DNA of 64,000 nt. Source: Hamiltosporidium tvaerminnensis FI-OER-3-3 (Eukaryota > Fungi > Microsporidia). The notes beneath the pieces were generated by a model. It did not search any database. It saw nothing but the letters and a program-made list of their open reading frames with translations, and was not told the DNA's origin. This document shows positions 24,730 through 55,879 of the stretch, in pieces. Positions within the stretch are counted from its first letter, which is position 1. Each line of letters opens with the position of its first letter. The position numbers and the translations under genes are program-made. The stretch spans positions 558,001-622,000 of the forward strand of contig JAKIMF020000011.1 of the NCBI GenBank assembly GCA_022605425.2. The letters run 5' to 3'.

Positions 24730-25450
24730 TTTATTTAAAAGTATCACATCTTTTTTAAAACAGTGGCAAGTGTTATATTTGTTTTTATGACATTAACGCA
24801 GTTCTGGGTTTAGCATAAATAACTACTAACCCACCCCTCCATCAGTACTCCAAGCGATACCTACGTCCCAAAGCCCTTTATTACCAAGTGTGTTGAACCT
24901 AATTAATAGGCGAGAAGGTTGCCCAGAGTTCGTCAATGTCTGTTGCATGGAGTGTGATCGAAGGCCGAAGCCCACCTGGCTCCTCCAAGACTTTGCAGCA
25001 TTCCCACTCACTCTACACTTTCTGAACACAATAATCTTCTAGCTAAGCTATATTTTGGAGATTTAGATGAGGTCCACCTAGACAGTGCAATGTCATACCA
25101 ACAGGTATAACCTGCTACTTAGCTCACAGCTTTTAATGGTTTTTTGTTTTATATCTACCAGGCGCTAAGTCTTCTAACCCGAGTGAGCAAAGCTAGGTTT
25201 CCTGCTTTTACATGGCAATTATCTACAAGTTAGCTGCCGTCTGCAATCTGGTTACATAAAAAACTACAAATAAATTTGTAGAAAAGGTTTCTATATTTTT
25301 TAATCCTCTCCTACTCATAACAACTCACATGAAACAACCGAAGATGTAGTGTGGTTTTATTCCCATCAAAAATCCAAACAATGATCTCACACCACTTTCC
25401 CACACTCATTGCCAAGCAGAAAGTTTTTTATGTAATTATCCATATTCTAC
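24730..25450 (-). mobile_element. SINE-like family A, copy 2 (inverted)
   Basis: Reverse complement aligns along the whole of 3748-4477, with near-identical core blocks (e.g. TTGCTCACTCGGGTTAGAAGACTTAGCGCCTGG). Confidence 0.8.
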
Positions 25451-27130: not shown

Positions 27131-27357
27131 TAATTGACTTACTTACTTATTTTATTCCTCTTTTACCATTCAGTGTCGAAGGTGAAAAAACAAAAGTTTC
27201 GATTCGTTTCTTTTAATCTATGTAACTCAAGATTATGAGAAATTGACTATAGAACCAGTGTATATATTCATCCACAAAGACAGCAATGAATTTCACACGA
27301 TTTGTACATATTCATTGCCAAGCAGAAATTTTTTAATGTGGTTATCTTTCTTCCACC
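27131..27357 (-). mobile_element. SINE-like family B, copy 2
   Basis: Perfect 11-bp TSD TATAAATCAGT (27120-27130 and 27358-27368). (TAAG)3 tail on the minus strand. Confidence 0.85.
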
Positions 27358-27399
27358 TATAAATCAGTATGGTCATTATAAACGTATAAAAACTTTCAT

Positions 27400-28250
27400 A
27401 AGTCAGATATATCCGAACCTTGACACACCGATATAAGAAATCACTCGAACATGACTATACCAGGCGTAAATATATATTGGTTAGATTCCCAAACTTAATT
27501 CTTCGATGCAGATGTATGTTTAAGTTTACAATACGCGATAGTAGACACTCGTTCCAAGAAATTTTTGAACGGTATGCGATGATAGAAGTGAATACAGGAA
27601 TAAAAACCGATGTCAATATATAGAAAAATAGACACAATAATTTTTTTTTAGATACGAGTGAAAATAAGTGAAAATGCTTTGAATCGATAACTATTTTCAG
27701 TACTCCTTTCAAATAGTCAAAACTGCCAAAAATTCAAAACTATGGCCTATTAACTGATGTAGACCCTGTTATAAATGTAGTATTGGGATAATTTCTTAAG
27801 TGATATCCGAGACGGTATTATGCCAAAATACAAGAAAGCATGCCCGAAAAGAGCAAATACCCAAGGATGTAGAAGCATACATTTGGTTTATAGTACTTGG
27901 GACGAGAGTTAAAACAATTTCTTTTGATTGCAACAGGACTTCGGTTGTGACCGAATTCCAAAGCTAATTGAGAGTATTGGTCAATGGGTATTTTTGAAAA
28001 GGCTAAAGAACATCATCCCACACCCTTTTATAATACAACGGTAATGAATAAGATGGTTAGTGCCAAGCATAAACAAAAATAGAAAAGCATCTCTTATTCT
28101 AACAGAAGAACTGCATTAGAAAGCTCAAATTAAATATAAACGAATTTTTAGATTTTGAAGTAGAAATTGATAGTTGGTGAAGTAGAAGGAATGCATAAAA
28201 GTGTAGAAATAATTTTAACAAGAATTTTATAAAATTGATTTACTATTTTA
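27400..28250 (+). mobile_element. Decayed LTR-retrotransposon integrase remnant (approximate)
   Basis: NCQKFK (Zn-binding region) at ~27720 and TPFY..xGN (cf. TPYHPQGNG) at ~28020. Confidence 0.4.
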
Positions 28251-30780
28251 ATATATCAAATAAGCTTCAACCAATTTACAATCAAGTCATAAACCACAAG
28301 ATTCTTTGCCCAAATTTTTTTTCCGTTGTAGGTGCATTTGAAACTCGTGTATTTTTTTAATATTTTTTCCTTACCTTTGCTTAAATATTTATTTTATTGT
28401 ATTTAAGTACTTTTTTATTGTATACTGATTGTATAAAACCCAATTCTTTTCGTTCTAATTCTTTAATTCAAATTTTTAACTCAAAATTGTAAATTGAATT
28501 CTTATTATTTATAATGAAATATTTTTGAAAATGGAACTTTATTATAAGATATAGCGATGAAGAATCTTACAACCAGCAGTCATCCTATTTATATCTGGTC
28601 CGGTTTATAGTGCCAAATTTCGTTTTATCCAAAATAATTTATAAAAACCCATTTTCGCATATTATAAATCCAAATTTACTTATTATACTGATATTAGAAT
28701 TTTATATTTACTTGATTGATTGTTTAACACCTGCGTTTTCAGTAGAGTGCCATATAGTGATAATTTAGGTTATTTGTAAATCGAATCTTCTTGTATTAAA
28801 TGCTTAGATGCGGTAACTTCACAATCTATTCAGTCTCGAATTTGATTCATATCCTCGACACACATAAATCTTATATATTTTAAACAATCAATTGCTTAAA
28901 CTTTTTTGAATTATATGAAGATCTAGCTACACATTATAGTATTCTAGATATAATACCTATAACGCAGAACAATTATTCTATAAATTATTTACTTATGATG
29001 AATTTTCAGATAACTAAGCTAATAATTCATAATTTATTGGTTTAGAAAATAGCAATTAAATCAAAAATTTAACTAAGATTCATTATGTTCTAGTTCAATC
29101 TCTAACCCAAAACAAAACTATGATTTATTTCATAAAGTTGTTATTTGAATCTTTTAACGAAACCTAATTTCTAACTATAAATTTTGGGTATTTCAAATAT
29201 AGGTTAATGTCTATTTTTCAAGCATACTTGAATCAATTAAGGTCGAGAGAAGCAAAATGAGTACCATCATCAAACCATTTAACCTGAAAAATAAGTATAA
29301 AGCATATGTGAATTATTTCCAATTAATTTCCGAATTTTCCAACATTCTTTATAATATAAAAAACCATGAGATATTTCAGACTTAGACCAAATCTCATATA
29401 TAATCTATATTAAAATCCTTTTTACGCGCTCTGGTCGTTCATTGTCTCTATGAATAAAAAAGTGCAACAAGTTTAAGACGATAAATTGACCTGATACAGC
29501 TTTCTACTGATTTTTTGCTTTGTTAAAAAAATTTATAATGATTTCTTGTTCTAATTTTTAAGTGACCAATTTTTATCTTAAAAACTCTGCTTGAATAAAT
29601 GTTGTAGTACTATAGAGCAAGATTTTACTATTTCTAAAATTTTGCTTGCCTGTTTTTCGGGTTAATATTACCTTCTTTTTCTTAGATGGTCTAAGAATTC
29701 CAGAGGTATATGTTACGCCAAAGACCCTCTTGGTGGCTTAAAAAATGTTCAATATATATGAATAATCACTCTCTAGATGTTGGTATACACGTATGTTGTT
29801 TGGTAAAGAAGGAATACCCTGGTCTTCGCGCAAACTAATTGAACCATCTAGATAAATACCTTTATCTAAACTACCATCGAAACTAGTTGATCCGAATTTT
29901 TATTATTTAAACTTTCTTGGTTATTAAATTTTCTGAAGAATTTTCTGTTTTTTAAAGAATCTATTCTTGTTACCGCATTTCAATATAATACAATGACGCA
30001 TTTTATACTAATTTTTTGTTTATCTTCAGTGTTTTCAATCTTTCACATTTAAAGAGCCCAGTTATCTTTAAAGAGTATAATTTATAATACTTTTTACAAA
30101 ATTATTTGTTATTATTTGCAAGATTCTTTAATTTTTGATTACAAAGAAATCTAATCTTCTTTCTGAAGCAAGCAGCTGGATATAATCTATAATAGAAAAA
30201 AAAATTCTGCAGCACAACTTAGGTGTTTCTAGAGTATTTTCCTTTTATATTTTTTTCGATTGAGCTTAAGCTAAACAAATCAACTGTTAACACAAAGGAA
30301 AAATTTGCTCTATGCAATTTTTTTTCGAAGTGTTCGTGGATCTATTTTCTGTTTGTCTTTAAAAATCGAATCCTATTTATATGCTGACTTGTGACTTATT
30401 TTCAATTTCATAAAATATACATGAGCTTATATTCTACTTTCAATTTTTAGGCGATCTATTTTTAAGGAGTTTTAGCTGAACTATGATTGAAGAATATCAA
30501 AGCTTGCTTTAAGTATTTTCAGAAGCACTATTTTTGAGCTGTTTTCTCGGTTTTTTTTACTAGTAATCTTTACTTTCCTCTTTAAGTTGCTCGTCTTTTG
30601 GCACTGATTCGTTAATTTGCTTATACTTTACAAAAAAAAATCGATGAACTTAATTCGAATTTCGTTTTATTATCATATGAAAAAGATCATTGTGAGATTT
30701 TAACTTATCGGCTCGTATTCCTTTGCATACATAATATCTTGAAAATTTCATGAATATTTTCATATAGTATTGTAAGCTTC

Positions 30781-31011
30781 TTTTCCTACCATGCCGGATG
30801 CAGAATTAGTTTGGATTATTCTCTGCTTATCGTAAAAGGAGACTATTAGAGACTGGCTCTTCGGGTTGGATTGGGCGTAGATCTAACAACTCACACTTTA
30901 AAACCCCCTTGTTATGAAACCCGAAAATGTAAATAGACCCACCGGAAAAAGACCGTGGTCTTTTACAGAGAGCGGCCAAGGCTCTTGCAGGGCTGTAGTG
31001 CTGATGTTAAG
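30781..31011 (+). mobile_element. SINE-like family C, copy 2
   Basis: TSD TGTAAGCTTC / TGTAGGCTTC (30771-30780 and 31012-31021). Shared family motifs. Confidence 0.8.
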
Positions 31012-32844
31012 TGTAGGCTTCATGATAATAGAGTCAAAATATTATTAATTATTGATGTTTATGTTTAAAATAAGGGCTCATGTTGCTTCTCTCCATGTAT
31101 GAGCGCCTCTCTTTCGTTATTTCTAATCCGGGTATTGATTTTAATTGTACCTTTTATTTTTACATATTCACCTTATTAACATGCCTTTATGTTCTATTTA
31201 CTCCTGTTAGTCCTATACAACACCCGATTTCACACACTTTTACCTTATTTGAATAACCAATAAAATCTTGATTCTATCAGTCTTTTAAATTAATCAGAAC
31301 GTGTTAAATATTAGTGTGATTCAATAAAATTTGTTAATGTTCATTATGTATATTTATTTTGTCACTTTGTGATTTTGCTGTGGAAAACTTTTTAAATCAA
31401 AAGCATATCGAAAGCTTTTAGATACTTACACTGCTCTCCGTACCCAAAGTATAGAGGTATTTATATCTTTAAATTCTGCTTTTTTTGCTCCTTTTTATGA
31501 ATTTTCATTTCGTATACATATTTCGAAATAAAATTACTCAAATCTCGAAGAAAATAACATATAAAGCAGAAAAAAATATATTTAGAATATTTGTACAATA
31601 CTAGACATAAATTGCAGATATATACCCATTAAAATGAAATATTAAGTTATTATCAATGTGATTGACGCTTAAACAAACATCGGGATTTGTTTAGATTAGC
31701 AAAAAGACTTTACAGTCAGTTAAAGACTCTTTTAAATTTCCGTTTGATAACATCGAGTTTAGGAGTAATATAATATGCCACGACTTATGTTTTAAAGACA
31801 TACTTCTCGAAACCTCTTGACTTGAATAACCCTAAAGATTACATATAATACTATATCATACAGAAAAAGCAAATATAATTTTAACGTTAAATCAAATTCA
31901 AAGTATAGCTGTTAAAAAAATGCAAAGACTTTGAAAAAGATGATTTGAGTAACCAATACGGTCTTCGTGTATATATCAGCGCGTACACAATGTAAAAATG
32001 AAATCAAAATAAAGTTTTTTTTCTTAGAGCCAGGTTTTTATAAATACTCGCCCGAAGCATGAGTACAGAGAAACTAACTATATCACGTTTTATTGTAGTA
32101 GATGTCTGATTTATTTTAGTAAAAATGCAAAGCATTAATTACAGAGTCCGTGATTGCCTTTAAAACACATGTCTATTATTTGAGTTGGAAACAACCTAAC
32201 TATTATAATAGCCAATAATATCCGATACCGTGAAAATTTTCTGCTGGGGTACTCTAAATCTTAAATTCAGGAAGCAAATTATGACAAACAAAATTCGAAT
32301 TCCATATCGAGTTATAATCTCATAGAGCCATAGTCTTAATTTAAAAAAGCTTTCGAACAAAAAAAAATGAAAGAGCTCATTTAATAGTTTAAATTAATTG
32401 AATTTCTATCCCTAAGTTATTTTGATGTTTACTAAGTTTAGGTAATAAAAATATGGAAGTTGCATTATATAGTTTTCAATTAAATAGTAAAGCACACTTA
32501 TATTTATTTTTTTACGAATTGAATTTATATGAATTATATTATGTGAAATACAGTATATAATTTTTCAAAAAAATAGGAAGGAAAATAAATGATTTAACTA
32601 TCTAAAAAAAATTGAAAAATCTCTTCTAAATTTAGAAAAAAAGAATAGTTTATTTGTTCAAACCAAAGTTTTTTTTTAAGGTTTAGTATTGGAAATAAAG
32701 GGAGATTGTAAAAAAATAGTATAAATGACAAGATATATAATTAAATTAAAAACAAAGAAGGTTAGTATTGGAAATAATGAGTGGATTTACGAACATAGGG
32801 GGAAGCCTTTGATCGCTATATAAGAATATGAGGGATTATCTGTA

Positions 32845-32901
32845 TAAAAACAGATCTCCCTCGAAAAAAAAGGATCCCTTTAAACAAAAATTAACTAAAA
32901 A
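32845..32901 (+). repeat. Left terminal inverted repeat
   Basis: TAAAAACAGATCTCCCTCG(A8)GGATCCCTTTAAACAAAAATTAACTAAAAA matches the reverse complement of 35908-35964 with 4 substitutions and 2 single-base indels. Confidence 0.9.
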
Positions 32902-32929
32902 TCAAAAATAAAAGAACTTCAAACACCTT

Positions 32930-34360
32930 TTAATTGAATTCGTTTAAGTTATCAGAAACGATTTTTAGATTCTTAAAGACTCTTATGGACTTTCTGTCAG
33001 CTGAACGCGTATGAGATTCATCGAGATTGAACTTGGCTTTAACATAGCTTTTGAATTCAGTAAACTTTGTACTATATTCTGGTTTTCTACAAACATCCTT
33101 TGAAGTATGTTCAGTGTCAAGTTCGTGATACATACAATAAACTTCAAAGAACGTGATGTAGCCATCTGTAGCTTCTTGTATAACATTTTCAAGAAACTTC
33201 ACAAAAGCCTTAAGTTCTCCGAATGCATAGGATAAATATCTCAAAAAAGTAGTTGGAATCTGCAGTTCTTTATTTATTGGCTCTTTTAAAATTAGTTGTA
33301 ATAGGCCTAGTCCTATTGCATGTCTTACAGATTCATTGGATAATTCAAGATGGTTTTTTATATTTTCTTTTATCGACAGATTCTTAGCAAAGTAAATGTA
33401 CTTCATTCTTCTTTCTAAAGCATAATCTACCACTGCCGAAAATTTAGGTAGGTTTTTACCAACGAATAACAGTCTAGTTTTGAAAGGGAAAGTAACTGGG
33501 TTAGCATATAGTGATCCTACCGTGATTCTTTCATACTTAGCAGGCCTTTTAATAATATCGACCCGAAGTATTTGAGAATCGTATTCCGCAACAACACCAA
33601 TCCTACAATTCCTGAGGTTTACAAAAAAGCGATTCATCGCTGAAGTTTTTGATTTTGACAGAGCTTTGACTGGTAAGTCACCAACTAAATTCTTTAAGGC
33701 TATTCTAAGCATGTTTATAAAAGTTTTTTTTCCGTTGGCACCTTCACCTATTAAGAAATACACTTTATCATTCGAATCATCAAATAATATTATTCTTAGT
33801 TCATTCAATACATATTCAATTTCACATTCATTTTTGAAGATGTTGTCAAGGAATAAATACGCTACTTTTTTATGATCTGAAAATAAAAGATCTTGTTCAG
33901 TAAAAGGTAGTGTGATGCTTATATAGTCGTCCAATTGGGTTTCTCTTATTCTTCTTAGTTCTGAGTCGAAAACACCTTTTTTTAGAGGGAGTAACTTAAA
34001 CTTAGTATTGAATTCCAAACCTTTTTCTTCGTCCCTGATATAAGGAAATAAAACAGACATAGTTGATTTGAGGAATCTGGGTGATTGAAGGCGTAAGCGC
34101 ATGGTACGATACTTAGTAAAGAGTCTATCTTGACAATCCTTAGCTGCATGCTGAGCTTTCAATAACTTCCGCGAACCATCCAATCCTTTAAGAAATTGTT
34201 CAGACAGATATGCTAAGATTCCAAGAGTTGCTTCCTTGTTGTACTCTTTGTATATGTTGTTAATATTTGCAACATATAAATTATCTCCAACCACAATAGC
34301 TCTTCCGTTAAATACCACCTTTAAGAACCTAGCAAACAACACAGGTGTAGGTGAATCCAT
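32930..34360 (-). CDS. D5_N + SF3 (poxvirus D5-like) helicase; C-terminal part of a split primase-helicase
   Basis: LPLKKGVFD (D5_N), GEGANGKKTF (Walker A), IGVVAEYD (Walker B), LFVGKNLP (sensor 1 region), ALERRM (Arg finger). Confidence 0.88.
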   Translation of the reverse strand: MDSPTPVLFARFLKVVFNGRAIVVGDNLYVANINNIYKEYNKEATLGILAYLSEQFLKGLDGSRKLLKAQHAAKDCQDRLFTKYRTMRLRLQSPRFLKSTMSVLFPYIRDEEKGLEFNTKFKLLPLKKGVFDSELRRIRETQLDDYISITLPFTEQDLLFSDHKKVAYLFLDNIFKNECEIEYVLNELRIILFDDSNDKVYFLIGEGANGKKTFINMLRIALKNLVGDLPVKALSKSKTSAMNRFFVNLRNCRIGVVAEYDSQILRVDIIKRPAKYERITVGSLYANPVTFPFKTRLLFVGKNLPKFSAVVDYALERRMKYIYFAKNLSIKENIKNHLELSNESVRHAIGLGLLQLILKEPINKELQIPTTFLRYLSYAFGELKAFVKFLENVIQEATDGYITFFEVYCMYHELDTEHTSKDVCRKPEYSTKFTEFKSYVKAKFNLDESHTRSADRKSIRVFKNLKIVSDNLNEFN

Positions 34361-35892
34361 AAAAATCGTAAGAAGGAATCTTCACGGTCAAGGTCAGTTT
34401 CTAGTTTTGACTTCAAAAAATAACCCTCATCGTAGACTAATTCCATGTAGTTTGGCTTATTCGACATCTCATCCAAAGCCTCCATACAATTCCTATTCTT
34501 GTCAACTAGAAACGTGTTTATTGTCGTATTGAAAGTTATACTTTGATAGATGTTTACTTTTAGAAAATTTTTTGTGAAGCGTTTCAATTCTTTTTGACAT
34601 GCCGTTATATGCTTTTCTTTTGGGAATAGATGCTCAATACTTTTATCTTGTGATATCACAGAATATGAACAATCAGACAGATTGTTATATGTGTCCATGT
34701 TAATACTTTCAATTCCTAAAAATTCCTTTACCTGTTCGGGTGAACCAACCTTTGAATGTACGCTCCTTTCTGAACGATTATATACTGGCAAGCCAGCCTC
34801 AGGATCCTTCGATAAAAATAGGTTATGGGTATTACTTAATAGTTGTTTCTGTAATACATTACCCCTAAACAGTGCGAATATTTCATCCTTACTTAAGACA
34901 TCCTTAAGCACCACTTCAACAATTTTATTTTTTGACGTAAGTCTACAACCATGACACTTTAAGCTTGCAGAAACAACAGTTATTCTAAGATACGTCTTAT
35001 TTGATTTATGCATTACGTTAAAGGGGCACACATCCAAGGGTTCGATGTCAACATAGATAACCATCAAACCATCCTTGATTTCGCTCTCTCTCGCTCCGTA
35101 TATCTTCTTGTACTTAAAACCAAACTTTGCCAGCAACTTGACAAAAATAGTATCTCTTGGATCTGCATTCCCACTTTCGCTTTCGATACTTCCGTTATTT
35201 GAAGTTAAACTAGATCCCTCTTCAAATGCAATGAGATTTTTGCTGGCAAGAAATGTTCTGATACAAAGGCCTAGTTCACCGGGCCACTGAACGAAATGCT
35301 CGATAAGGTCAAGTTCTTTTCTAGGTCCGGTGTGTTTAGCATCAAATACTAATTTACCGTCAACCTTTTCTTTAGATGCCCCGAACGCCCTTAAGAGACA
35401 ACCACCGGGTTTATACACGTTCAAATCAACGCCTGGCAAATTTAAATGTTCGCGGACAAACGACAAAACCTCTGAAACGTTCATAAATACATACTCCTTT
35501 CCTTCTTTAAATAGTCTGACGATCATATGTTTCGAAAACTTTTCCTTACCAGTAGCATCTGAGACGATAAACTGAATATCAAACCCTGAAAAATAACCCT
35601 TTACAAATCTTTTGATGTCATCTACAAGGCTATCGAGTTGAAATTCTTTGCTGTGTAAATCAAAAAACAGAACCACTTTAGCATTCGCTCTTATAAATTC
35701 ATTAAAGTAGCCTTTAGGTATTTCTTGTTTGTAGAGTTCAAGAAAGTTGTCTTTGCCAGATATTGTCATTCTTTTTCCAAAAATTGACGTGGTGTAGCCA
35801 AAAACCAAATTTTCTTCGTGCCACTCATCTATAACTGTTTCAAGTTCAAATTCGCTCCCGGGTTCCTCATTCGTCTTTTTTATGGTTTTCAT
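34321..35892 (-). CDS. PrimPol/UL52-like archaeo-eukaryotic primase with C-H-C-C Zn finger; N-terminal part of a split primase-helicase
   Basis: LFFDLH (motif I), FSKHMI (motif II SxH), VDLNVY...LLRAFGASK (motif III), CPFNVMHKSN...KCHGC (PrimPol-type Zn finger). TAACCC directly before the ATG. Confidence 0.85.
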   Translation of the reverse strand: MKTIKKTNEEPGSEFELETVIDEWHEENLVFGYTTSIFGKRMTISGKDNFLELYKQEIPKGYFNEFIRANAKVVLFFDLHSKEFQLDSLVDDIKRFVKGYFSGFDIQFIVSDATGKEKFSKHMIVRLFKEGKEYVFMNVSEVLSFVREHLNLPGVDLNVYKPGGCLLRAFGASKEKVDGKLVFDAKHTGPRKELDLIEHFVQWPGELGLCIRTFLASKNLIAFEEGSSLTSNNGSIESESGNADPRDTIFVKLLAKFGFKYKKIYGARESEIKDGLMVIYVDIEPLDVCPFNVMHKSNKTYLRITVVSASLKCHGCRLTSKNKIVEVVLKDVLSKDEIFALFRGNVLQKQLLSNTHNLFLSKDPEAGLPVYNRSERSVHSKVGSPEQVKEFLGIESINMDTYNNLSDCSYSVISQDKSIEHLFPKEKHITACQKELKRFTKNFLKVNIYQSITFNTTINTFLVDKNRNCMEALDEMSNKPNYMELVYDEGYFLKSKLETDLDREDSFLRFLWIHLHLCCLLGS

Positions 35893-35907
35893 GGGTTAGA
35901 AATACCT

Positions 35908-35964
35908 TTTTTAGTTATTTCTGTGTAAAGGGATCCTTTTTTTTTCGAGGGGGATCCGTTTTTA
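35908..35964 (-). repeat. Right terminal inverted repeat
   Basis: TTTTTAGTTATTTCTGTGTAAAGGGATCC(T9)CGAGGGGGATCCGTTTTTA. Confidence 0.9.
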
Positions 35965-36290
35965 GTCGGCTTGTTAACACATCTTAATTATTAGCAGGAT
36001 TTTCGAGTTTCCAGAATTGAAGTTAGTCTGGCTAAAGGCGCGAGAAAAAAATACAGTCAAAAAAAGCAAGGTATATTGGAGATAACAGGTGTCTTGTTGT
36101 ATACAAGAAGCATTATGGAACATCTAGTTCTGAAAATAAAAAATTTGGAAGAAAAAAAGAATAATTAGAAGCGAAATTGAAATCTTAAGAAATGAATCAG
36201 AGCAATGAAGGCATTCTGATATGTAAAATTGATTGAATTAATTTTTAGAGATAATATGCGGATATATTTTTTGCTAATTATGAAATGTAT

Positions 36291-36514
36291 TATAGGTGAA
36301 AAGAAGAGAACCACAATAAAAACCATCTGCTTCGTAACGAGTATGTAAAATTCGTGTGAATATGATTGCTTTTTGGTAAATATAAACCACATCGGATCTA
36401 TAGGCCGATCCTTCTATAATCCGAGTTACAATAGATTAAAAGAAACAAATGAATGTTTTTCATTTGTTCATCCTCGACATTGAGAAATAAAACAGGAATG
36501 GAATAAATAAGTAA
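36291..36514 (+). mobile_element. SINE-like family B, copy 3
   Basis: Shares the head, the GAGTTACA..AGATTAAAAGAAACAAA body and the TTGTTCATCCTCGAC..TGAG..GGAATG..TAAG tail. Confidence 0.75.
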
Positions 36515-39500
36515 AAAGGAATATATTCTAAATTAACAAACGATTCATGTTTTGAAAGTTTTGAAAAGCATAGTCTTTTTTACTGCTTAATTCATTCTCT
36601 TTATTATATTCTAATTTTTTAATAATTAATATAAAATTTATGAACGGCGAATAACAAAAATTCTACACCAGTGTAGTGTTTAATGTATTTTCATGTAGCC
36701 TATAAAACACGGTAAGCGTAAAAATGTATTCTTGAAACCATTTCTGTATGGAAAATAATATATTCATTTCTAAAAACAAAGTTAGACCGCTAGAAAATGT
36801 TTTGAATTGGTTTTAGCAGATAAATAAAGATTTTATAACAGAAAAATGCTAATTAGATTGTGTAAATAATTTATTTGTGAATTGTTTATGATACAAAGAT
36901 AAAACATGGAATTCAATTTAAAAACTTTGATAATTTGATAGCTTATGCTTTAAAGTTTTAGTAAAAAAAAGTGTTAGAAATTCTTTGATGTAATATATTT
37001 TGTTTACTAGGAGTTTTTTACGCACTTAGGTAGTTTTGTCAAGTAACTGAAGTTATGAATACGACAGAATTTAAGAATACCTAGAGATCTGAGTAAAAAG
37101 AAATAAATAGTCATTTGATACATGAATAGCATGACTCAAAATCAATTACGTTTTTTTATAAATGTTTAGACTTTATATTAGTTTAAAATGTATAATAAAC
37201 GAAAGCGAATATACTGCGAACTTTTTATCAATTTAATCATTAATAACTCAGATTGATTTGATATAGAGACTTCTTAACACTGTTTTAAGGTGTTTACAAC
37301 CAACTAGGATATAATAAATTCATTTACTCAATTAAAATTCTTATTTATTTAAAATACCTGTATTTTTTTAGATGAAAATTTTTTTGCTTTTAGAAAAGTT
37401 ACTAAGTTGCCCTAATATTCTTAGAAAAACCCAATTTAATTGCTGTCATAGGTTATGATTACATTTATTAAAATTTAGTTAAAACAATATACAAATCTAA
37501 TCTGATAAATACGGTTGAAAATCAATTTAAATGTACTATATATTATATTATTATGAGCATTTAGGCTCGAAATCAATTCATACCCAGGAACTCAATTCAA
37601 TATTACAAATAGTTGCCTAACCTCGACCAAATCATTTTTTTTATCATTAAAACTCCCATAATTTTTTTTTCCGAAAAATAGAAGTCAAGAATCGAGTATT
37701 ACACAATTGAAAAACCTGCTGTAATTGAATAAATAAATTCCACTAGAATAATATTTAAAAGAATTAATGTTTCATTGTTTAAAGTATAAAAGAGTAGATC
37801 ATAAACAAAAAAATTATTATTATGTTCTATTTTGTTTTTATAAACATTCTAATTTGTTATTTCGATAAGAAATTTTGAAACAAGTTTTAAAAAATTATTA
37901 TATAAGCGAATGTTATCTTTTTTTGTTATGAAAACATTCACAACATTATTCATTCAATTATTCTTGCATATTCTTCTTAGCAAATATAACACCTCATTTA
38001 TGAATATTATTTTAGAAAAAACCTCATCACATCTTCTGATATATGATTCTATTAGTCCAATAAGCCTTTTTAAGATAATATTAATATTAAATATATTAAA
38101 TAATTTTTCAAAAAGAATAATCCGAAATAGAAGAAATATCTTACTAAATTTCTTTGATAAATATTTAAATTATGGCAAAAATGTACATATTTGTATATTT
38201 AAATATCCAGAAAAATATTTTAATGAAAAAAATATATTACTGAAGTATAAAAATGACTGGTTCAATATATAATTTTTGGGGCTGGATACCCCCTTAAAAC
38301 TGTCCCTTTTAATACAAAAAAATCTTTTAAAGAATTACTGCATATAAAGATGATTGAGGTGAGTGAAGAGGATTGAATAAAAAATTTAAAAAAAATATTT
38401 AATGATTTATTTTTGTTCATTTTCAAAATTGGAATTTTTTTTTAAAAACATATGTATTAGTATATAATTTTCTAAATTTTAGGGTTTATAGCTTAAGCAT
38501 TAATATGAGTCAAATTAATAAACGATACAATTTTTTTAAGTTTCTAATGATATTGCATGCTACGTTTGGTTTCATAAAAAAACGCGTTTTCTGAAATTAC
38601 TTTATATTTTCATATTTAACGATGATTTGAAACCTTAATAACAATATCAAATCAGATTTTCTGTATTATTTGCCAAAACTACTTTAATATACTTTAAAAT
38701 AGAAGTCATATAACAATATCTATTTCAATGTTAAAGATTTTTTAAATCAAAAAAAAATATCCATGTATATACCTGTTGGAAATTGTTTATAAAACAAAAA
38801 GAATAAAGAAAAACGCTCTTAAAATGTAAAAAAAATTAAAAAAGCAGAAATTATCTTTGCAGAAAACGATTTGAATATATAGTCTGAATCAAGTTTTGCT
38901 TTAAAAAAAATATAATAACGAATACGATTACTTCTTATAAAGAAATTCGGTAATTAGGAGTTGACATTTGAAAATGTTTTGGTAGAGTAAAATAACTTTA
39001 TATTCCGCTTGTGAATTAAGCATATTCACTAAAATCAATAAATTAGAAAAAATAAATGTATTTTAGTGAATTTAAGAACTTAATTTAGTTACAATTCATT
39101 ATAGAATTTTTTTTGATCCGAAAATATAGTTTAAGATTCAAGGCTATAGACTTTTTTATAGTAAATTTTGTTATAAAGTATTGAGGTTATATTGAGACAG
39201 AGCTTTTGAAGCGTAGATAATACATTTTAATCAGAGTAAATCCAATATATGGAATAAGGAGTGAGTTATATTAAATGATTAAATAAAAAATATTACAATC
39301 CAAAAATTTTTTCAGTAAAAATAATATATATATTTTACCTTAATTAGTTCAAAACCATACAAAATACATTGAAAGTATCAAAATGATAGGATTGAAACAA
39401 ATTTATAATAAGATTCCTTCTTATAACCCAAATATTTTTTACATATATTCAGGTAAATTGGTTCATAATAGATTATTTTTCGCCAAAAAATATAATTTAT

Positions 39501-42500
39501 AATTTGGAAAAAAAAATCGGTATTTGAAATATTTTGAAATTCATTACATATATAATAATGCAGAGTTTAATATGTGACAAAAGAATCGGAAAATCACCTT
39601 GATAAATTCATCTAATCTCATTAAATTAAGCAAATATTATAAAAACAATTCAAAACTTAATGGTCAATTGTTGCATTCATAGTTTTTTTCGTACAGGAAT
39701 ACCTTAAGAAATTTTGATTAGACTTGAAACAAAATTTATAATCAAACAATAATGCCACAAGTAATAGCATGCGATTATAATCTACAAAAAAATTTATTTT
39801 CATTAAAAAATTACAAATAGAACAAAATTAAACATAAATAATGGGAAATCATATTAAATATGACTATTCAAAATAATATTCTTAGAAGTAAAAATATTTC
39901 TTGAATCAAAAATGTATTTATTAGATATACCTTACAGTGAATATATGAAAACAATCGCTAGTGAAATGTAATAGAAGTAAAAAAAATTATAATGACGCCT
40001 AAATATAGTTCAAAGTTAACGAATCCATCACCTCTATCGTCACATAACTGAAAATTTCCTCATTATGCTTCTCACACACAATAACTTTATACCCGGAAGC
40101 TTACTCCCCCTTGTCTAATACACAGTCTCTCTTTGCCGTATAAACTTCATGCACGAGCCATCACATAAAATATTAACCGTCTATAATTTGGTATTCACGA
40201 AGAAAATCGAAAGGCAAAATTTCAAAAATTACGTGCTTCTTATCAAATGTCTTCATGAATAGTCGCAATGTGTTAATTTTCGATGCAAAAAAACTTTAAG
40301 GCACACCGAAAATGCTGATCGTAACTTTACATGTATTAATAAAAGAGATTGTTTTGAAGACTCTTGACTTTTTAAAAATTTTAGCTTTGAATTAAAAAAA
40401 TTGGCTAGAATATAATTCCAAACAACATGAAATCTCACCTTGTTTCGTTTTTTTTATATGTTCGTTTGATAACATCTTAAAATGTTCCTATGATATGACT
40501 ACATGTTAAATTAAACCAATATTAGAGAAGAAAACTTAAGATGTGATTGTAGGAACACAATTTTTTTTAAATATTCTCAAGGGTATATTTAGCATCATAA
40601 ATGCAATCGAATAGGAAGTTGAACAAGATTTACGCGAGTCACCTACTGACATATAGTAGATTACAAGGTATACATATATTTTTGACAGTAAATCTATCTA
40701 ATGTTTTATATCCGCTTGAAAGCAAAATTGAATATGAATTTTTAAGCTAGTACCTTCGAAAGAAATCAAGAAGAAGCTTTATAGACAATGTCATTTAATA
40801 TTTATAGAGACATAATCTTAGTGAAAATAAGGTACCGTCTAATATGAAATTTAGTACTGTTGATCATGAAGAATAAATCTTTCAAACAACGAATAGAAGC
40901 CATTTTTTATAATTTAAGGCAGTTCATTTATGATAAACCTATGTTTTGGCTATTCTGAAGTATTTTCATAGATAAATAATTAATTAGCTGTGAATATGAT
41001 CAATCGGGTTCAAATAGTAAGTTCTAAGCTATGAATTTGAACAATATTACTGAACATACTCTTTTTATATTTATCCGACATTATTTGTACAGAATAAATC
41101 CCAAGTACCGTTTTATAAACTTGATGCGTTTATATATTTTATAAATGGGCTTTCATGGTGTATATCTTCACAGATCGATACTATTGCTACTTTTTTCCTT
41201 AATAAAATTATAATATCAACAAATAAATTTATGATATTCTAAAAGTTATATGTTTAAAATGAAAGCTTCGGGCTGAATAGTGTACACGGTTTTACTTATT
41301 TATTTCGTAAAAGCATGCAAAGAACAGTTTCTAGTACTGGTTTATCGTCTCTATCCCAATCTTCTATATGTATATATAAACTATATTATAGCCGTTGAGT
41401 ATAAGTATTGAAAATATTTGCTAGCTCAAAATGAAGAAATATTAGTATCGAGTATTTAAAATGCTAAAAAGCTGGCTCCAAAGAATTTCGTAAAAAATCA
41501 AGAGTATAGAAAGAATCATTAAGCCATTTTAGTGTTCATAAAAAACAATCAAGGCGTAAGAGTTATTATATTCAATGCTTTTACTACCTTAATTTCCATG
41601 ATTGTATTTGAGATTTTTTAAAATATTTGTATTAAGCTAGAGAAATCATATTTCGATAAGATAAGAAAAGGCTTTGGAAAAGTGGTCAAAAATATTTTAT
41701 GAAACAAAAGTAATTTAACTCTCGTGTTCACATTTAGGTAAAGATTCAATACGTCGATTATAAATCGTAATTAGTCAAAGTTAAAAATATATTCCAATAT
41801 TGCATCAACAGAACCGATGATGCTTTTTTATTGATGATCTTGTGATTCTTGTTATTTCTATGCCTATTTTGTATTTAAAGACAGATAAAGAACAATATTT
41901 CCTATAATACAAGTTTGGAAATCAACAAGAAAAAAATATCACAGAGTATCCGGTTAAAAAATAACTCCTCGAAAAGCTGATCTTAGCAATACATGCGAAT
42001 ATAAAAAAATTAAAAAAATTGCATGTTTATCTTATATAAAGGAGTAAAATAAATGTTTAAAATCCAAACTTAAGACTTCTGCACACCAAATCAAACAAAA
42101 AATGATTCTTTGATTTAATTTTCAAATTCTATCGGGAAATTTACTTTTATGGAGAGGAAATTTACTGCAATCAGCCGAATCTTCCAATTCAGATAGTCAA
42201 TGCATGTAGGTTTAGTATTAAACAGGTCAATTGGGATCAAGGTGCGCAGATAATCCGTAAATATTCAAAGCATAGCACTTAATACGCCAAACAGCTATAC
42301 ATTACGAATTAAAATAGCTTTTGCACAACTTTTGGATATTTTGAAAAGAAACAAAGAAATATTGACTGTGTGAATAAGAATCTAATATAAAATAAAAAAA
42401 TATCCTCATACCGACATAGAAGGCCTTTCAATGAAAGATATGGGATGTGGAATAATGTGTCAAATAAAATTTGTAAAGATTATACACACATGACTTATAT

Positions 42501-45500
42501 TTTGGACAATTTTAGTCATTGGCTATTAATTATAACTCGTGGAAGATAGTAAAATTATAATTTCTCAAACAATATACATATTATCCAGGTATTATGAATA
42601 ATCATGTAAATTAATGAGCTAGTTATTTAAAATTATACTGCTATCGATTGCACAATTCAAAGATGTATGTCGAAGCAAAGATTCATATCATTTAACCTTG
42701 GACCTGCATTTTATTTTTAGAACAATAATTGACATTCAAAAAAAATAAAAATGAATCTATGAAGAAAAAACCCACGATAAAAATGAACTGGAACCGACCT
42801 AAGTCCTGGAAACTCGAGATTAAAAACGCCAAGTCAATAATGATTGCTAATTAGCTGGAGTGAATGGCAAAATGCACACATGCTAAATCGCTGCAATTAA
42901 CCACAATGACAAACAAGCTTAGCGATATTAATTATGGCAAAAAAAAATAATTTTTATTAAGTCTAAAATTCCTAAATAACTTAATATTATCGATAATTAC
43001 TCAGTGTGCCAAATATGTAAATTGACAGTAATTGATACACATGTAGGGCCCACACGGCAAAATTTAATTTTTTTATATTCTTAAGGACTGTAAGTTGATA
43101 ATAATTTTATTGAACAGCAAAGTTTGGGGTATTAAAAATAGGTAAAATCCGAATTTTCTTTTTCATATACGCATCTTTTTAGACTAGAGGTAGAAAGAAC
43201 GAAAAAGATAACCAAGAAGTGTATTTTGTAGGCAATACTGCTTCGTATTATATATATTTTTCTGTAACATTGATTGTCTGCATTATGACAATTTATTCTG
43301 GTTATAAAATTAAAATTTAAGTTAAAGGCCTTTAGAATTCTAAAATTCTATTAACGAAATTCCGAAGCTCGTAGATATCAAAGCATTAATACTATAACAC
43401 TTTAAAAAACATAAAAAATTTTATAATATGATCAAAGTGGTCTAATTAGGTAAATCTTTTTGAAATTTTCTTTAATCGATAATGTAAAAATTATTTCGGA
43501 AAAGGTTAATGATCTTATCAAATAATATGCCCATGGAAATCCAAGAAATACAAAGCGTAGGTGTATCAAAATAACCAAGCAAAAATTTCTTTAAAAAACT
43601 GGTTTTCTTTCTAGATTAAGGGTTGTAAACCTTTGCTTATACTAAGACATAAAATGATAGGATTTTAAATAGCTAAAATATGAAGCATGGGGTTTAACAT
43701 TAACTTCAAAGATCAAATTTAGCTAATAGTGTCATGTACGAATAATAGAAGTGATTTGTGCGAGATAATATGCCATTTTCTTGTTAATATATAAACATTA
43801 AAGTAAATTGGCACAAAAAATTGCAGAGGGTGCATCATTGTATAGATCCCAATATTGTGTAGTTAGGTTAGAGAGTGCTGCGAAGAATTAACTATAATAT
43901 AGAAGGATATGCTCGAACTTTATTTGTAAGCTGTTGGATATATTTAAGAATATCAATCAAGATTTAAACATAACATATCAACAATATTATACTAGCCACG
44001 TAGCACAAAGCCCAATGGATTTTGATAGAAATGTGATTGAAGCACAAAAAGAGCAGTTCAACCCCCAAATTTTAATTAAATGCAAAAAATACCGTTTTAA
44101 ATCCAAAAATTAATTAAATAATCTGGCAATAAAGGACAAAATTAATTTGATAGAAAAATTCAAGTATATTTGGAAAAATTTGGAACTATACAGTCAGAAA
44201 TATTTAAAATAGTATGTCTAAGTACATTAAAGATCTATGAAAACCAAAAAAAACAGTCATAATTAAAAAAATCTTAGCCTTTTATCGGCCATACATTTTT
44301 TTTCAAAAAAGCCGTAATTATATCCGAATTCAACACAATATTGCAATTATATTGTATGTCAAAAATACCAAACAAATCGCTACATATAATTTTCCTGATA
44401 CCCGATAAATTCAAATTTAAAGAAAGAAAATTCAATTTGGAACTTGTTCACCTTTTTTGCTTTCAGTGTATATTCGAGCTATGAGATTGTTTCTCATTTG
44501 CATAATTAAACGATTTGAGCATAATCGTACAAGTAAAACTATAAGTATAGCATTGAAGCCGATAGAAAATCTTCTGTTATGGTTTTCAACGTTTTTTATT
44601 TCCAAAAAAGAAGTACAGATTATAAAAATACAAAAGCTTATCGAAATTTTTTTCATTCGAAAAATCTTAGATAATAAGAGATAACCAAGATAATTTTCAG
44701 TTTGATAAGTTGTGGCAGTTAATTGATTGTCCAATATCTACAGTTTCAGTAGAAAAAAAGAAGGGTAAATACAAGACGGTTTACAGAGTTGTGATGATGT
44801 ATATTAAGTTTGTATTTTCTTTCATTCAATCGTTTTACTTCTAAATTATAAAAACATATTATCTTTGATAAAATTTTTATTTGTTTTAAGGCGAAATTTA
44901 ATTAGATATTTTTGAGAAAAATATAAACTTAACAGCTAATTAATACATAATTCATTGTATGTGATTAAAAACTACCCCTCTTTCGTTTTAGATATCTTCA
45001 AACAGAATATAGGAAGAAAATAAAACACCATTAGATTGCACGATCTTGAAATCGACGAATTCTTTAAATCAAAGAATAAAATCTTAGTTATATTTAACAT
45101 GAAGAGATTGTTTTATAATGTGAGATTTATTGTCTGAATAGCACAAATAAATTCGAATTTTTCTAATTTTCATATAGATAGTGTATTTATCTTATAAATA
45201 TTTCATAATTAATATAATTTAATACAACTGTGAAGGAAACCGAAGTTTTATTTCACAGTATTTATTGATAATGGGTTTATAAAAATAAATACAAAACCAT
45301 GGAGACATTATCTGTAAATATAAGAATATTTTTACTAAATACAAGATTTTCAAGTCTGTATTTGCAGAATAAACATTATTAAGCGAATTAAAACCGACAT
45401 TTAAATATTTCCGTACTATATTTTATAGTTATGATGCCGATTAGGTAATCAGAGAAAAACTAAATAAAATTGTTTAATAGAATGCTAGCATATAGTTGAG

Positions 45501-47403
45501 TGCTATACTTAAGTTTAAGCTTTATTTACGTTATATTATAGAGATTTACCATCATGTGCTAAATATAGCTAAATATGTTGTTCATGTTATATATCCTGTA
45601 AATATACGTTAAAAAAAAGTAAAACCTTAGGAGGCAGGATAAGAAGACGCCTAAACCAAAGCAAAAATTTGTTTTTAGAACCTTTTCAGGTGATATAAAA
45701 TGTAGATTCAGATGGGAAAGTATAACATTTCGCTAACTTGGGGATTAAAATTTTAGTTTTGATTCAAAATATAGGCTAAAATGTTTTGTTTTTTTAAGTG
45801 TAAGTAAAATGCCTTCATGTCTCAAACATCCATATTTCTAAAATATCGATTTTTGAGAGTATGTACAATTCTGTTTCGAACTTCGTATAATATTCACAAT
45901 TTGATTTATTTTTGTGCTGAAAATCTATGCTGAAACGTATCAAGCATTCATTTAAATTATAAGCATATCTATGTTGTTATCCGATGCCTGAAAAGGCGAT
46001 CTAAAAAAAAGTTTTTATAAATATGTAATACATAAGAGGATAAATATTAAAAGAAGATGGCCAACTTACGATGTTCTATTGTTTAAACAAGCTCTTCGTA
46101 TTTTAAAGTCTGTTCAAATATCTATAATTTCTATATCAGGAAAGTAACAAACCTAAATAATCGTTTTTATGATTTGTAAGTTTTTTTTAGAAAAATAATT
46201 TTAGGAATAAGTTTTATCAATTTAAATAGCACATTCGAAATTTGGACTATAAATGTGTCGATAATCACAAATCAGATATATTTTCTTATAACGAAAATTT
46301 TCATATTTCAAAATAAACTAATGAGCAGAGTGAAAAAGCGAGGTATCTGAGTGTAAATAAAATGTTTACAACTAAATTTATAATTTTCGAAAAAAAAATC
46401 ATAAATAATGCCTGTCCAATAGAGTCGTTTAAAGCCAAAAATAAAAATATCATATCGATAATATGAAAACTCTCAAATAGTATATTTCTATGGCCAAATA
46501 AATAACTGCAAAGAAAAACTGATTAATAACTGATTTGATTATAGTATTCATACAAGAATTATATGGTCACAAATTAACTAAAGACTGCAATATTATTAGC
46601 GAGAAGGGGCATGTTCAGACAAATAAAACCGATAAGTTGCTCGCTAATATCTCTATTTTCAAATTTATCACTTAGTTTAATAATAGATGAATGAATATAA
46701 TGATATCTTAGATAGCAGCTGAAATTTCAAATTATCTTATAAATTTCTAGAATACACTGCTTGAAAAAAATTACAACAATAATACAAGAAAAAAATGTCT
46801 TATTGTCTTTCCTTGGTGTAAGCGGTATGTAAATGCAAATAAACCCTAAAGTAATAATAAGGATTAAATATCTCAATATGACAATTTTTTGTTTTCTTAT
46901 ACAATCTATTAAAATTCTAAAAAAAAACACTTATGTAGTTTATTTTAAGAAAAACAAGTATTAAATCTAACCTTCTAGAACTTTCTTCTTTTTTACCGCC
47001 TTAAATATGGTTTTTACAAGAAAACATTAGTTCATTTTACTTCACAAATTAAAAACTGATTCCTATAAGTTAAATAGTTTAAATAATCTTAGTATAAAAA
47101 AACGATGTATAATACTAAATAGCATGTAAAGTAGGATATACGCATAGTTAGAAGTAAAAAACTTTGACATCAAATACATAGTAACTAAATGCAGTTATAG
47201 CTATTGGACAGTCATAATGAGAATATAAAATTCCGAAAAAACTTACAGCTATAAAATAAAATAATTATCGGCAAATTAGTTATTAAAATTTGCGAAAAAA
47301 AGAAAATTTGCAAGTATTTTTACTAATTTGCCTAAAACGTAATATAAGAAAAAAACATATTTTAGAATGTATTAAAAATACAAAAAATGCTAATGCGTAT
47401 ATT

Positions 47404-47637
47404 CATTCATCCTCGGCACTACAGCCCCGTGCGAGCCTTGGCTTCACTCAGTAATGCCCGCACCGGTATTTTTTCAGTGGATTTGCTTGCTTTTTCGGGT
47501 TTCGTAACAAGCTGAGTTTAAAGGGTGCGTTGTTAGCCCTACGCCCAACAACAATATGAAGGACAGTTCCCTTTTAGTCGCCTCTTACGACAAGCAGAGA
47601 ATACTCCAAACCAATTCTGCTCCCGGCATGGTGGGAA
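47404..47637 (-). mobile_element. SINE-like family C, copy 3 (best preserved)
   Basis: TSD TAATGCGTATATT / TAATGCTTATATT (47391-47403 and 47638-47650). Contains GCTTGTCGTAAGAGGCGACTAAAAGGG and GGGCGTAGGGCTAACAAC. Confidence 0.85.
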
Positions 47638-53600: not shown

Positions 53601-54171
53601 AAATTTTTCTGTTCGTTCTGGCTCAAAGTCTCAACGTTTTTGGTTGATTTCTTGAGATATTTTCTCTATTTATATGCAACCAGGAAAACTATAGAAGCCT
53701 AATCTAAGCCGCATATCTTAATGTTTTTTATTACTTTTTTAACGATGGATTCAACATTTGCGTATATTACTCACTATTTTAGATTTTATATCGACTGCTC
53801 GTTTTAAAAAATTCTTTACTGTTTGTCATTTATGCCGGAAAGTAAAATTCCTTGAATTTGAAAAGCATTTTAGCCTTTAATTCCATATTTTTTCCCAATA
53901 AATGCATTTTGCATAGAACTTTTATTAATGAAAATATAGTATATTTTCTACTCTTAAATGAATATAAATTTAAAAAAATTGCTTCTTATTATAAAAAAGT
54001 TTTGGTTTGAAAATATATTTAATTATAAAAATCATTATTCTATATTTAATATTGCTATGGAATAGATTTTACATAAATTAATTCAAAAAAAATGTTCTGG
54101 ATTTCTTTAATTGATAATTTATTCAAATATAGTATATACTGGCATATAAAATAAATTAAATTGAAAACCCC

Positions 54172-55879
54172 ATGATAGTTTTGTGTTTTATCAGAAGTAT
54201 TTTTTTTACTGAGATATATAAATCTTCAGTTTGCTGCCGTGTCTCATAACATCCAGGTTCAAGATAAATGTCAGAATATAAATGAATCTGATGATCGAGA
54301 ATACAGAAAGGATGATATTGAAAAAAGCCAAGAAAAAAATTCGGAAAAAAGAAATTTAGACCAGGGATACAAAATTAGGGAGACATGCGTCGAAGAAAAC
54401 AAACCCAATCAGGTTTTGAGATTAAAAGCCATTAGTAATATCCCGACTGATGAGGGTAATATTGGAAAAAACGATTTAACAATGAATACTTATAATAATT
54501 GCGAGGCTATTCCTGCTCGAAATACCTATTTATTTCAAAATAATTATGAAAATCCGGCAGCATACTATAATCAACAAATTTATCAAAGCCAAAAAGCCCG
54601 ATCATTTAATATGTACGAAACATCCCCAAATAGATTTTCTCATTCAACTTCGACTGTATATCCTTGGTTTACTAATTATGCGCCCTCTCAATCTTCTTCA
54701 AATATTAGTTACGCCTACGGACTCAAGGCTTTTGTTTCTTGCATTCAAACAGATAGACTATTATCGGAGACCGAATTAGTTAATTATGTTTTCACCTCAT
54801 TAAATTCTTTGAATTATTTCACAAATTTTAGAGATCTTTTACCTCTCATCGAATATCATTATACGTTTAAAAACATCAAAAATGCCTCTGCAGTAATATT
54901 ACATTCAAGAATACTTGATAATATAAGAATCAATGAAATGCGAATTAAAAAAATTACAAAAACAGCGGATGAAGACATGCAAAGAAACTGGTCTCTTTTT
55001 ACTGAAAAATTTTCAAAAATAAAAATAATAGATTATGATTCTCCGTTGGTATCATTTTTTCCTGGAATTATAATGTTGAAAGATTTTATTTACAAATTGC
55101 TTTTAGGAAAGGTGTTACAAGACAGAAATATATTCAATATTTTTGTTGGAATGAAAATGATAGAAAGCTTACTCTTTTCAAGCAAAGAAATGATTTCTAG
55201 TTTTTGTAACGAAAACAGCTTAGACATATTTAGTTATGGGCACGGTGCTAAAAACATAATAAACGTTCACAAGAAAATGTTTTTTACAATATTGAAAAAA
55301 ATATTATGTAAAAACTTTAATTTGTCAAGAAATTTTTTTATTACCCTAAGAATTACCGAAATAGGATGCGATTATCTTAGTGACGATAAATTATACCTAA
55401 ACAAAGCGTATAAATGCCATTTTTTGCGTACTTTTATAGATTCAATATTTTTTTTAGATGATGTGTTGATGAATACTGTTTCTAACATCTATGAAAAAAG
55501 TATTATAGATGTAGATTTACAAACCGGATTTGTAGTTCATACATTCTTTGATTTTTCAATACTAGAAAAAATTGAAATAGTTCCGGGCCTTTCTCTAAAG
55601 TTTATTAAATATTATTTAATTTTGTTGCAAAAAGAGGAATTTATAAGTTCTGGAAATATCAATCAAATAGTTTTTAAGGATGTAATTGAAAATTTAACCA
55701 TCGAAGTAGATAATTTTGAGAAAGAATTGACAAAACCGTGTTCTAGCCAGCCAAAAGAGCCTATAAATTTGCTTTTCAAATGCTTGTGCATTTTTAATTT
55801 CATTATTAAATGTGGGTTCAATAGAAATATACATAATAGTCTATATTTAGAGCGGATATCAGAAATATCAATTTTATGA
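54172..55879 (+). pseudogene. Paralog of the 17081-18772 secreted protein with a +1 frameshift in a T8 run in the signal-peptide region
   Basis: AAAACCCC-ATG at 54172. Removing one T from 54200-54207 gives MIVLCFIRSIFLLRYINLQFAAVSHN, in frame with the 546-aa ORF and colinear with the paralog. Confidence 0.8.

Follow-up and report, generated by a model that had tools for sequence, protein, structure and literature searches.

What is a viral-type replication gene doing alone between two inverted repeats on the chromosome of a eukaryotic parasite? The question is raised by a stretch of 64,000 nucleotides (the window) of contig JAKIMF020000011.1, positions 558,001 to 622,000, from Hamiltosporidium tvaerminnensis FI-OER-3-3; Hamiltosporidium is a microsporidian parasite of water fleas. 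Between positions 32845 and 35964 the window harbors a 3.1-kb unit that consists of a single gene, encoding a D5-type primase-helicase, and the two inverted arms that enclose it (Table 1). The reading that we favor, at a probability of about 0.5, is that the unit is an old integrated copy of a one-gene D5-type primase-helicase mini-replicon, now fixed and partly domesticated. Partial domestication at this site is itself probable, and sequence affinity makes the gene pool of large DNA viruses the likely source.

In a gapped alignment the two arms are identical at 52 of 58 columns, with four mismatches and two gaps, and their pair score of 82 compares with a maximum of 32 among 100 shuffles. This bears out the inverted repeats of about 58 bp reported in a preliminary description of the locus made from its letters. 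Its remark that almost no spare sequence separates arms and gene also stands, with 15 bp between the right arm and the ATG and 28 bp between the stop codon and the left arm. This closeness, far above chance, is counted in favor of the mini-replicon. As was also proposed, the unit is devoid of transposase, integrase, and capsid, by both the list of open reading frames (ORFs) and Pfam. There is no second copy within the window, and Rfam gives no match within 28000-42000. The right arm could form a weak hairpin (z -2.8; 3 of 200 shuffles were equally good), and the ends of the unit start and finish with TA. The unit had been called richer in GC than its flanks, which is correct as far as the figures go (34.6%, against 25.6% and 26.9% in the 1-kb flanks); however, because the host UPF1 gene also reaches 33.3%, the excess is mostly a contrast between coding and intergenic DNA. 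Third-position GC is mildly higher in the two gene halves (0.35 and 0.29) than in seven host ORFs (0.18-0.25).

The arms themselves contain iteron-like words, whose 12-mer pattern is found at only four places in the whole window, all of them here. The internal repeat of the right arm was reached in 5 of 1000 dinucleotide shuffles, in a test chosen after the sequence had been seen. Joined end to end, the arms form one palindrome in which opposed word pairs surround a 12-bp A/T center; this arrangement exists only if the ends of the unit are joined, and the words are significant in the right arm and not in the left. Scans with the arm pattern returned one viral and five metagenome matches, which were dropped as unrelated because none has a D5 homolog by tblastn. 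As a separate observation, L035:4001-4054, L039:4001-4054, and L038:608-668 each contain three tandem 12- to 15-mers at a spacing of 21-23 bp; these iteron-like arrays, on contigs without a D5 homolog, were picked by the arm pattern itself.

The AEP motifs I-III, zinc finger, and SF3 helicase of the preliminary description are recovered by alignment, profiles, and Pfam; they stand in one chain in the homologs P0001-P0005, and are split by a frameshift in the window. Pfam matches are weak and restricted to PPL4 (AEP) and DUF5906 (SF3). Profiles that include relatives reach C962R of African swine fever virus (ASFV) at E 2e-44, poxvirus D5 at 4e-32, and human PrimPol at 2e-8. A structure model of the intact homolog P0001 has a predicted local distance difference test score (pLDDT) of 62 and a predicted template-modeling score of 0.33, and supports domains only; an earlier model, with a pLDDT of 31, was set aside as unusable. 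The top fold matches of the P0001 model in the PDB are C962R and E5/D5, so that the viral D5 affinity suspected from the outset holds in both profiles and folds. Among viral models, the primase-helicases of giant viruses, virophages, and ichnoviruses are foremost, at 10-18% identity, and searches of phages and plasmids gave weak helicase-domain matches only. A D5_N domain, which had also been claimed, is not recovered by Pfam in either the window proteins or P0001, and is seen only in the distant P0014, P0015, P0016, and P0020. The last 85 residues are predicted to follow an order of helices and strands that is presumably winged-helix-like.

The catalytic motifs are altered. Lineage A is that of the window. 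After the Walker A lysine all its proteins carry K (GKK), although alignment A7 has S or T there in 31 of its 35 other rows; at sensor-1 they again carry K, the residue being N in 32 of those 35; an N that follows the sensor-1 K might compensate. AEP motif I is DxH in the window and the H. tvaerminnensis rows and DxD in P0001, P0002, and the paralog P0009, the last of which is canonical in AEP motif I, Walker A, and sensor-1 alike. An intact catalytic set (DxD/E, GK[S/T], sensor-1 N) is not found in the window lineage.

In this genotype the gene is also broken. The single coding unit of about 990 codons that had been described proves to be divided by a frameshift near 34,360 into parts of 523 and 476 aa. 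A contig of sequencing run X2 spans 32864-36409 with 0 differences and 0 gaps relative to the window; the frameshift is therefore not an assembly slip, and the break is real. Run X2 is not flagged as one from which the window could derive. X2 has the frameshifted form alone, and in the annotation protein P0007 jumps over 11 residues at the frameshift point. A programmed -1 frameshift was set aside, since intact homologs have no such shift and the run of T falls short of a slippery heptamer. The gene has CCC immediately before its ATG, a feature shared by two of the seven host ORFs compared, those of UPF1 and of the gene at 17081. This is a start signal described for microsporidia (PMC2803860).

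The closest homologs come from H. tvaerminnensis and H. magnivora and number six, with a length of 981-988 aa in five of them and 976 aa in the other; each of these ortholog-type records is annotated as one protein. At least three lineages occur in Hamiltosporidium, on different contigs, with identities of 96-98%, 61% (P0009, TBU11657.1), and 54-59% (P0010, TBU00537.1; P0011, KAK1348253.1; P0012); members of the third lineage are truncated, with deletions. The P0012 record bears the name 'putative reverse transcriptase', and its last ~550 residues are of the D5 paralog lineage; the name probably derives from a neighboring fragment merged in the gene model. A search of 1.84 billion representatives with the N-terminal half gave nine matches, three from Hamiltosporidium and six on contigs of 1.3-5.1 kb, with no other named eukaryote among them. 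In the nearest unassigned relatives the contig has little length beyond that of the gene (2883 bp against 918 aa); the source contigs of P0014 and P0016 measure 2883 and 3817 bp.

Through intermediate relatives, the nearest placed family is the D5 of uncultured giant viruses (the P0020 family; 34 IMG/VR loci), at an identity of only about 22-29%. Comparable arms within 300 bp are found at 0 of the 34 giant-virus loci; the best arm scores there, 48 and 41, are almost purely A/T and are the only two above their own shuffle maximum, as against 82 for the unit. Scans for related loci with alignments A4 and A3 and the proteins P0014, P0015, P0016, P0022, and P0023 as queries gave no match. In a quick version of the tree, the branch leading to the Hamiltosporidium clade measures 4.96 changes per column, and the clade joins P0014-P0016 with a value of 98 in the Shimodaira-Hasegawa-like approximate likelihood-ratio test; long branches meeting may have produced this join, and the grouping is unsure. 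The giant-virus bins L021/L022 and L002/L029 each contain two diverged D5 genes, the second copy being about 58% identical to P0020.

The D5-like proteins of the Nucleocytoviricota (poxvirus D5/E5, ASFV C962R, and the P0020 family) have the same order of AEP, zinc finger, collar, SF3 helicase, and C-terminal domain. However, in these viruses D5 is a core gene of large genomes without comparable arms, whereas here it is found alone between arms in the DNA of a cellular chromosome, its branch is very long, and its ATPase motifs are altered. SaPI5 (a Staphylococcus aureus pathogenicity island), with its PriRep and origin, and pRN1, with ORF904, likewise employ one fused primase-SF3 helicase, and the alpha protein of phage P4 represents a comparable replicon. 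The SaPI origin is one block beside the gene, on an island that carries an integrase. In SaPI PriRep5, a C-terminal winged helix binds opposed iterons around an A/T center (10.64898/2026.10.17.759575), and the minimal replicon of pRN1 is 3097 bp (PMC4234260). All of these are prokaryotic systems, whereas here the origin-like layout is split between two arms that flank the gene, and the iterons are candidates only. By analogy, the unit would work like the SaPI, P4, and pRN1 replicons.

In the ancestral cycle, the joined arms would have acted as a palindromic origin, with two opposed pairs of GGATCCC-core words around the 12-bp A/T center in a SaPI-like layout. The predicted winged-helix-like C-terminal domain would bind the arm words, the A/T center would be melted by the helicase once loaded as a hexamer, and the AEP domain would prime synthesis for extension by host polymerases. 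Opening of the palindrome at its center, followed by end-joining into the chromosome, would leave the arms flush with the ends, without a transposase and without a clear target-site duplication. In the present state, host polymerase II would transcribe the gene from the CCC start to provide a weakened or non-catalytic protein, which may be retained by selection and would have been lost by frameshift in this genotype.

The state of the site was compared in four of the 24 listed sequencing runs (X2, X16, X17, and X18, under three organism codes). A single X18 contig contains 1.95 kb of left flank, the unit, and part of the right flank, one X17 contig spans both unit ends, and both X16 alleles pass from the left flank into the unit. 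The left arm displays allelic decay at several positions in X16, X17, and X18. Since the site is shared by the four runs and the arm has decayed by allele, the insertion is old and fixed, and there is no sign of present mobility. The extrachromosomal forms, coverage excess, and empty sites for which the preliminary description had suggested a search have left no trace in the contigs and listed joints of the four runs; neither a junction nor a depth excess marks a free circular or linear form in these contigs, which drop rare forms and whose depth is a poor measure of copy number. The only joint found at the left end of the unit is its own right arm. No other left-arm locus appears among the matches listed in X2, X16, and X17, a weak negative in that the same search lost the known X18 contig to a filter and three further pieces lie outside the listing. 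Other arm-bearing loci, considered on account of a threefold left-arm depth in X2, were rejected, as this depth reflects overlapping short contigs at low-depth error bubbles together with the unit's own right arm.

A number of these results weigh against a replicon past. The unit is present at the site in all four runs and in both X16 alleles, depth over the unit is flank-like (935 versus 958-966 in X2; 15.6 versus 17-20 in X17), and no empty-site or circle joint is seen among the 15 of 28 joints listed in the contigs of the four runs. The arms are known from one locus only, their decay pattern is independent from allele to allele, and no target-site duplication is visible beyond the terminal TA, which may be part of the arm. 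In the shuffle test for internal repeats the left arm does not pass, and each arm has two words compared with five or six in SaPI5. Eight scans of viral contigs and two of metagenomes reveal no free relative with arms, and the near-identical P0003-P0005, from one assembly, may be haplotypes of a single locus. The earlier proposal of a self-copying element agrees with the anatomy and with a family of several lineages, though solely for the past, the unit now being fixed and of flank-like depth. The opposing picture, of a single-copy syntenic gene with arms nowhere else, is likewise half right: the gene is syntenic and the arms are seen only here, but relatives keep the arms and diverged paralogs exist.

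The history of the gene can also be read from its alleles. The central block differs in DNA by 14-18% from other strains' copies at the site (in alignable pieces), compared with 2-3% at the gene ends, and X17 has 51/1732, 16/733, and 91/577 differences inside the unit against 5/1487 and 12/1857 in the flanks. At the protein level, the other five proteins are set apart from P0007 and the window by 7-30 residues per 50 in columns 201-500 and by 0-4 in columns 1-200. In columns 851-950 the protein groups cross the species line, such that P0003 (H. tvaerminnensis) differs at 2 sites from P0001 (H. magnivora) and at 15 from the conspecific P0004. These blocks of deep divergence sit in a background of 96-99% identity. 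The alleles appear to be patchworks formed by block exchange with diverged copies, the alternative being long-term balancing selection. Because the central block of the window resembles neither known paralog, a further donor appears to have existed; it is found nowhere else in X2 at 80% likeness. In the 400 bp to the left of the unit (32430-32845), the X16 alleles differ more than in the farther flanks.

In the central block 38-40/190 amino acids differ, whereas an absence of selection would give 61 +/- 4, and no fewer than 47 in any of 2000 simulations; the same expectation includes about three stops. The comparison assumes P0001-type DNA in X17, and it may have been in the donor that selection acted. 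In the 3' half, 9 of 16 single-base variants are synonymous, in a sample of 19 variant rows with three in one codon omitted and 537 further rows outside it. These comparisons point to purifying selection on the lineage.

Such a pattern also speaks for a different history, in which a viral D5 gene was captured and was never autonomous, the arms having arisen by duplication of a viral palindrome with an origin-like or regulatory role. The gene would then have been domesticated and spread by duplication and gene conversion, perhaps as an ATPase-poor decoy that poisons the hexamers of an invading virus. We hold this to be on the unlikely side. Besides purifying selection, it draws on the fixed and syntenic position, the host-type CCC start, a trans-species allelic diversity raised as in conflict genes, and the alteration of Walker A and sensor-1 in all lineage-A rows, yet within a 976-988-aa frame that is one protein in six records. 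It leaves unexplained why the arms are flush to both gene ends, and it has to contend with a central-block donor that is absent elsewhere in X2 and with a gene that is dispensable, given its frameshifted sole form in X2 and the truncated, deleted P0010/P0011 lineage.

Sub-repeats inside arms are common in transposon ends, and ends that begin and finish with TA resemble the Tc1/mariner target. The arms could be transposase-binding ends, in the style of a Pack-MULE or a MITE pair, and the viral gene a passive cut-and-paste cargo moved in trans in a genome rich in DNA transposons (7.04%; PMC10542269). This is improbable, as no other arm locus is among the matches in X2, X16, and X17, whereas true repeats within 2 kb reach 10-20 times flank depth, and the window ORF list contains no transposase. 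Least credence goes to an ancient integration of one segment, the size of a gene, from a multipartite DNA virus or plasmid whose other segments (capsid, polymerase) would have related ends. In the Glypta fumiferanae ichnovirus the segments number 105, at 1.5-5.2 kb, with a seven-member pox-D5 family among their genes, and the 972-aa D5-like protein of its segment C20 is the fold match of rank 35 (PMC7602663, PMC2567993). The nearest unassigned relatives do occupy contigs hardly exceeding gene length, but these short Logan contigs may be mere transcripts or fragments. Moreover, ichnovirus proviral segments end in direct rather than inverted repeats, as shown for campoplegine wasps (PMC7602663/PMC2567993), and no second locus with this arm was found. 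No other cargo between the same ends is seen in the window, in the listed run matches, or in the viral and metagenome arm-pattern scans. A segment family with shared termini, as first suggested, is unsupported, there being no other left-arm locus in the window and, as a weak negative, none in the runs.

The mini-replicon that we favor also has to be distinguished from known element classes. Polintons and polinton-like viruses are likewise integrated and bounded by inverted repeats, and some have divergent D5-like primase-helicases (PMC4405056). Of the Polinton/Maverick features, the unit possesses the terminal inverted repeats (TIRs) but neither the size of 15-20 kb nor the gene set of pPolB, RVE integrase, packaging ATPase, protease, and capsids (PMC4405056), none of which has an ORF in its 3.1 kb or nearby. 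The capsid and packaging module of polinton-like viruses and virophages is absent, with no ORF of at least 120 aa between 26588 and 32930; from 35892 to 54482 there is only one such frame (120 aa, 37910-38272). Transpovirons are likewise small, capsid-less, and derived from viral replication modules, but they are tied to Mimiviridae and have several genes, including an SF1 helicase fused to an inactivated pDNAP (PMC5499653), a hallmark not found in the AEP-SF3 unit. Nor is there a DDE transposase in cis, as in a cut-and-paste TIR transposon. In banchine ichnoviruses (GfV-C20-ORF1, AsIV), a D5-like family is likewise distributed over gene-sized units in a eukaryote, but as circular packaged segments in a wasp host and with a structural identity of only 11-13% (PMC7602663, PMC2567993); the unit resembles these D5 segments in size only. 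The unit falls outside the Polintons, polinton-like viruses, transpovirons, and autonomous TIR transposons.

The literature searched, consisting of main texts with few subscription papers, describes neither a D5 primase-helicase gene family in microsporidia nor a one-gene, inverted-repeat-bounded primase-helicase element in a eukaryote. The accessible text of PMC7313128, PMC12449221, and PMC10542269 has no mention of the gene under helicase, virus, or repeat words, and that of PMC13533422 has none under microsporidia; the supplements of these papers could list it. It is conceivable, if doubtful, that the unit gives a first chromosomal case of a eukaryotic mobile DNA class not yet described, a one-gene replicon with no transposase or capsid that binds iterons in its own inverted ends, is copied as a circle or in a hairpin-ended form, and enters by opening its palindromic origin. 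Such an element would have colonized Hamiltosporidium at least three times, would even now exchange blocks with unseen free copies, and would have been tamed here to an ATPase-poor decoy. If the paralogs were also armed, this would represent a route to mobility without transposase, integrase, or HUH endonuclease, and would offer a compact, testable candidate binding site for a D5 protein of eukaryotic-virus type. Even as a fossil, the unit would be a record of the entry of a large-DNA-virus gene into microsporidia, and the later motif change and trans-species mosaicism suggest a continuing conflict.

Table 1. Features of the unit, in window positions.
Feature	Position	Strand	Basis
Left inverted arm (at the gene's 3' end)	32845..32901	.	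inverted-repeat search and gapped alignment
Pair of iteron-like 12-mers at a 20-bp spacing (32847, 32867); outer one degenerate	32847..32878	+	word search
Gene 3' part, 476 aa: D5-type collar, SF3 helicase, C-terminal domain	32930..34360	-	
C-terminal domain, predicted helix-strand-helix-helix-helix-strand-strand, pLDDT 72-85 (P0001 model)	32960..33208	-	
Walker A with K for the usual S/T	33722..33748	-	alignment A7
Gene 5' part, 523 aa: AEP primase-polymerase, zinc finger, middle domain; last codons out of frame	34321..35892	-	
Frameshift splitting the gene in this genotype	34350..34372	-	ORFs, X2 contig, P0007 alignment
Diverged central block, ~aa 209-495	34455..35250	-	strain comparison
C-H-C-C zinc finger, common to giant-virus relatives too	34945..35028	-	alignment
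AEP catalytic domain, ~aa 48-190	35323..35751	-	Pfam, profiles, alignment
CCC directly 5' of the ATG (microsporidian start signal)	35893..35895	-	sequence; PMC2803860
Right inverted arm (at the gene's 5' end)	35908..35964	.	inverted-repeat search and gapped alignment
Two iteron-like 12-mers 21 bp apart (35951, 35930), 11/12 identical, core GGATCCC	35930..35962	-	word search

Elsewhere in the window, the genes for the UPF1 helicase (787 aa) and an Rpn10-like protein (210 aa) at 11104-14614, and for a kinase at 5165-6058, are all cellular. Two paralogous genes without a Pfam match, encoding 563 and 465 aa, lie at 17081-18772 and 54482-55879; their DNA is 82% identical over about 2 kb, and the first starts with a signal-peptide-like stretch. 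An inverted pair of about 730 bp, 84% identical, is formed by 3749-4475 and 24730-25450. A dispersed, GC-richer repeat of about 230 bp occurs at 30773-31004, 19377-19609, and 47407-47646, with 74-76% identity and about 12 times the flank depth. A second dispersed repeat, at about 20 times flank depth, is found at 36290-36514, 27132-27362, and 2739-2877; it contains a short hairpin near 36390, and one copy is situated 330 bp to the right of the unit. A third high-copy repeat, at 37877-38297, overlaps the 120-aa frame, which is of low complexity.

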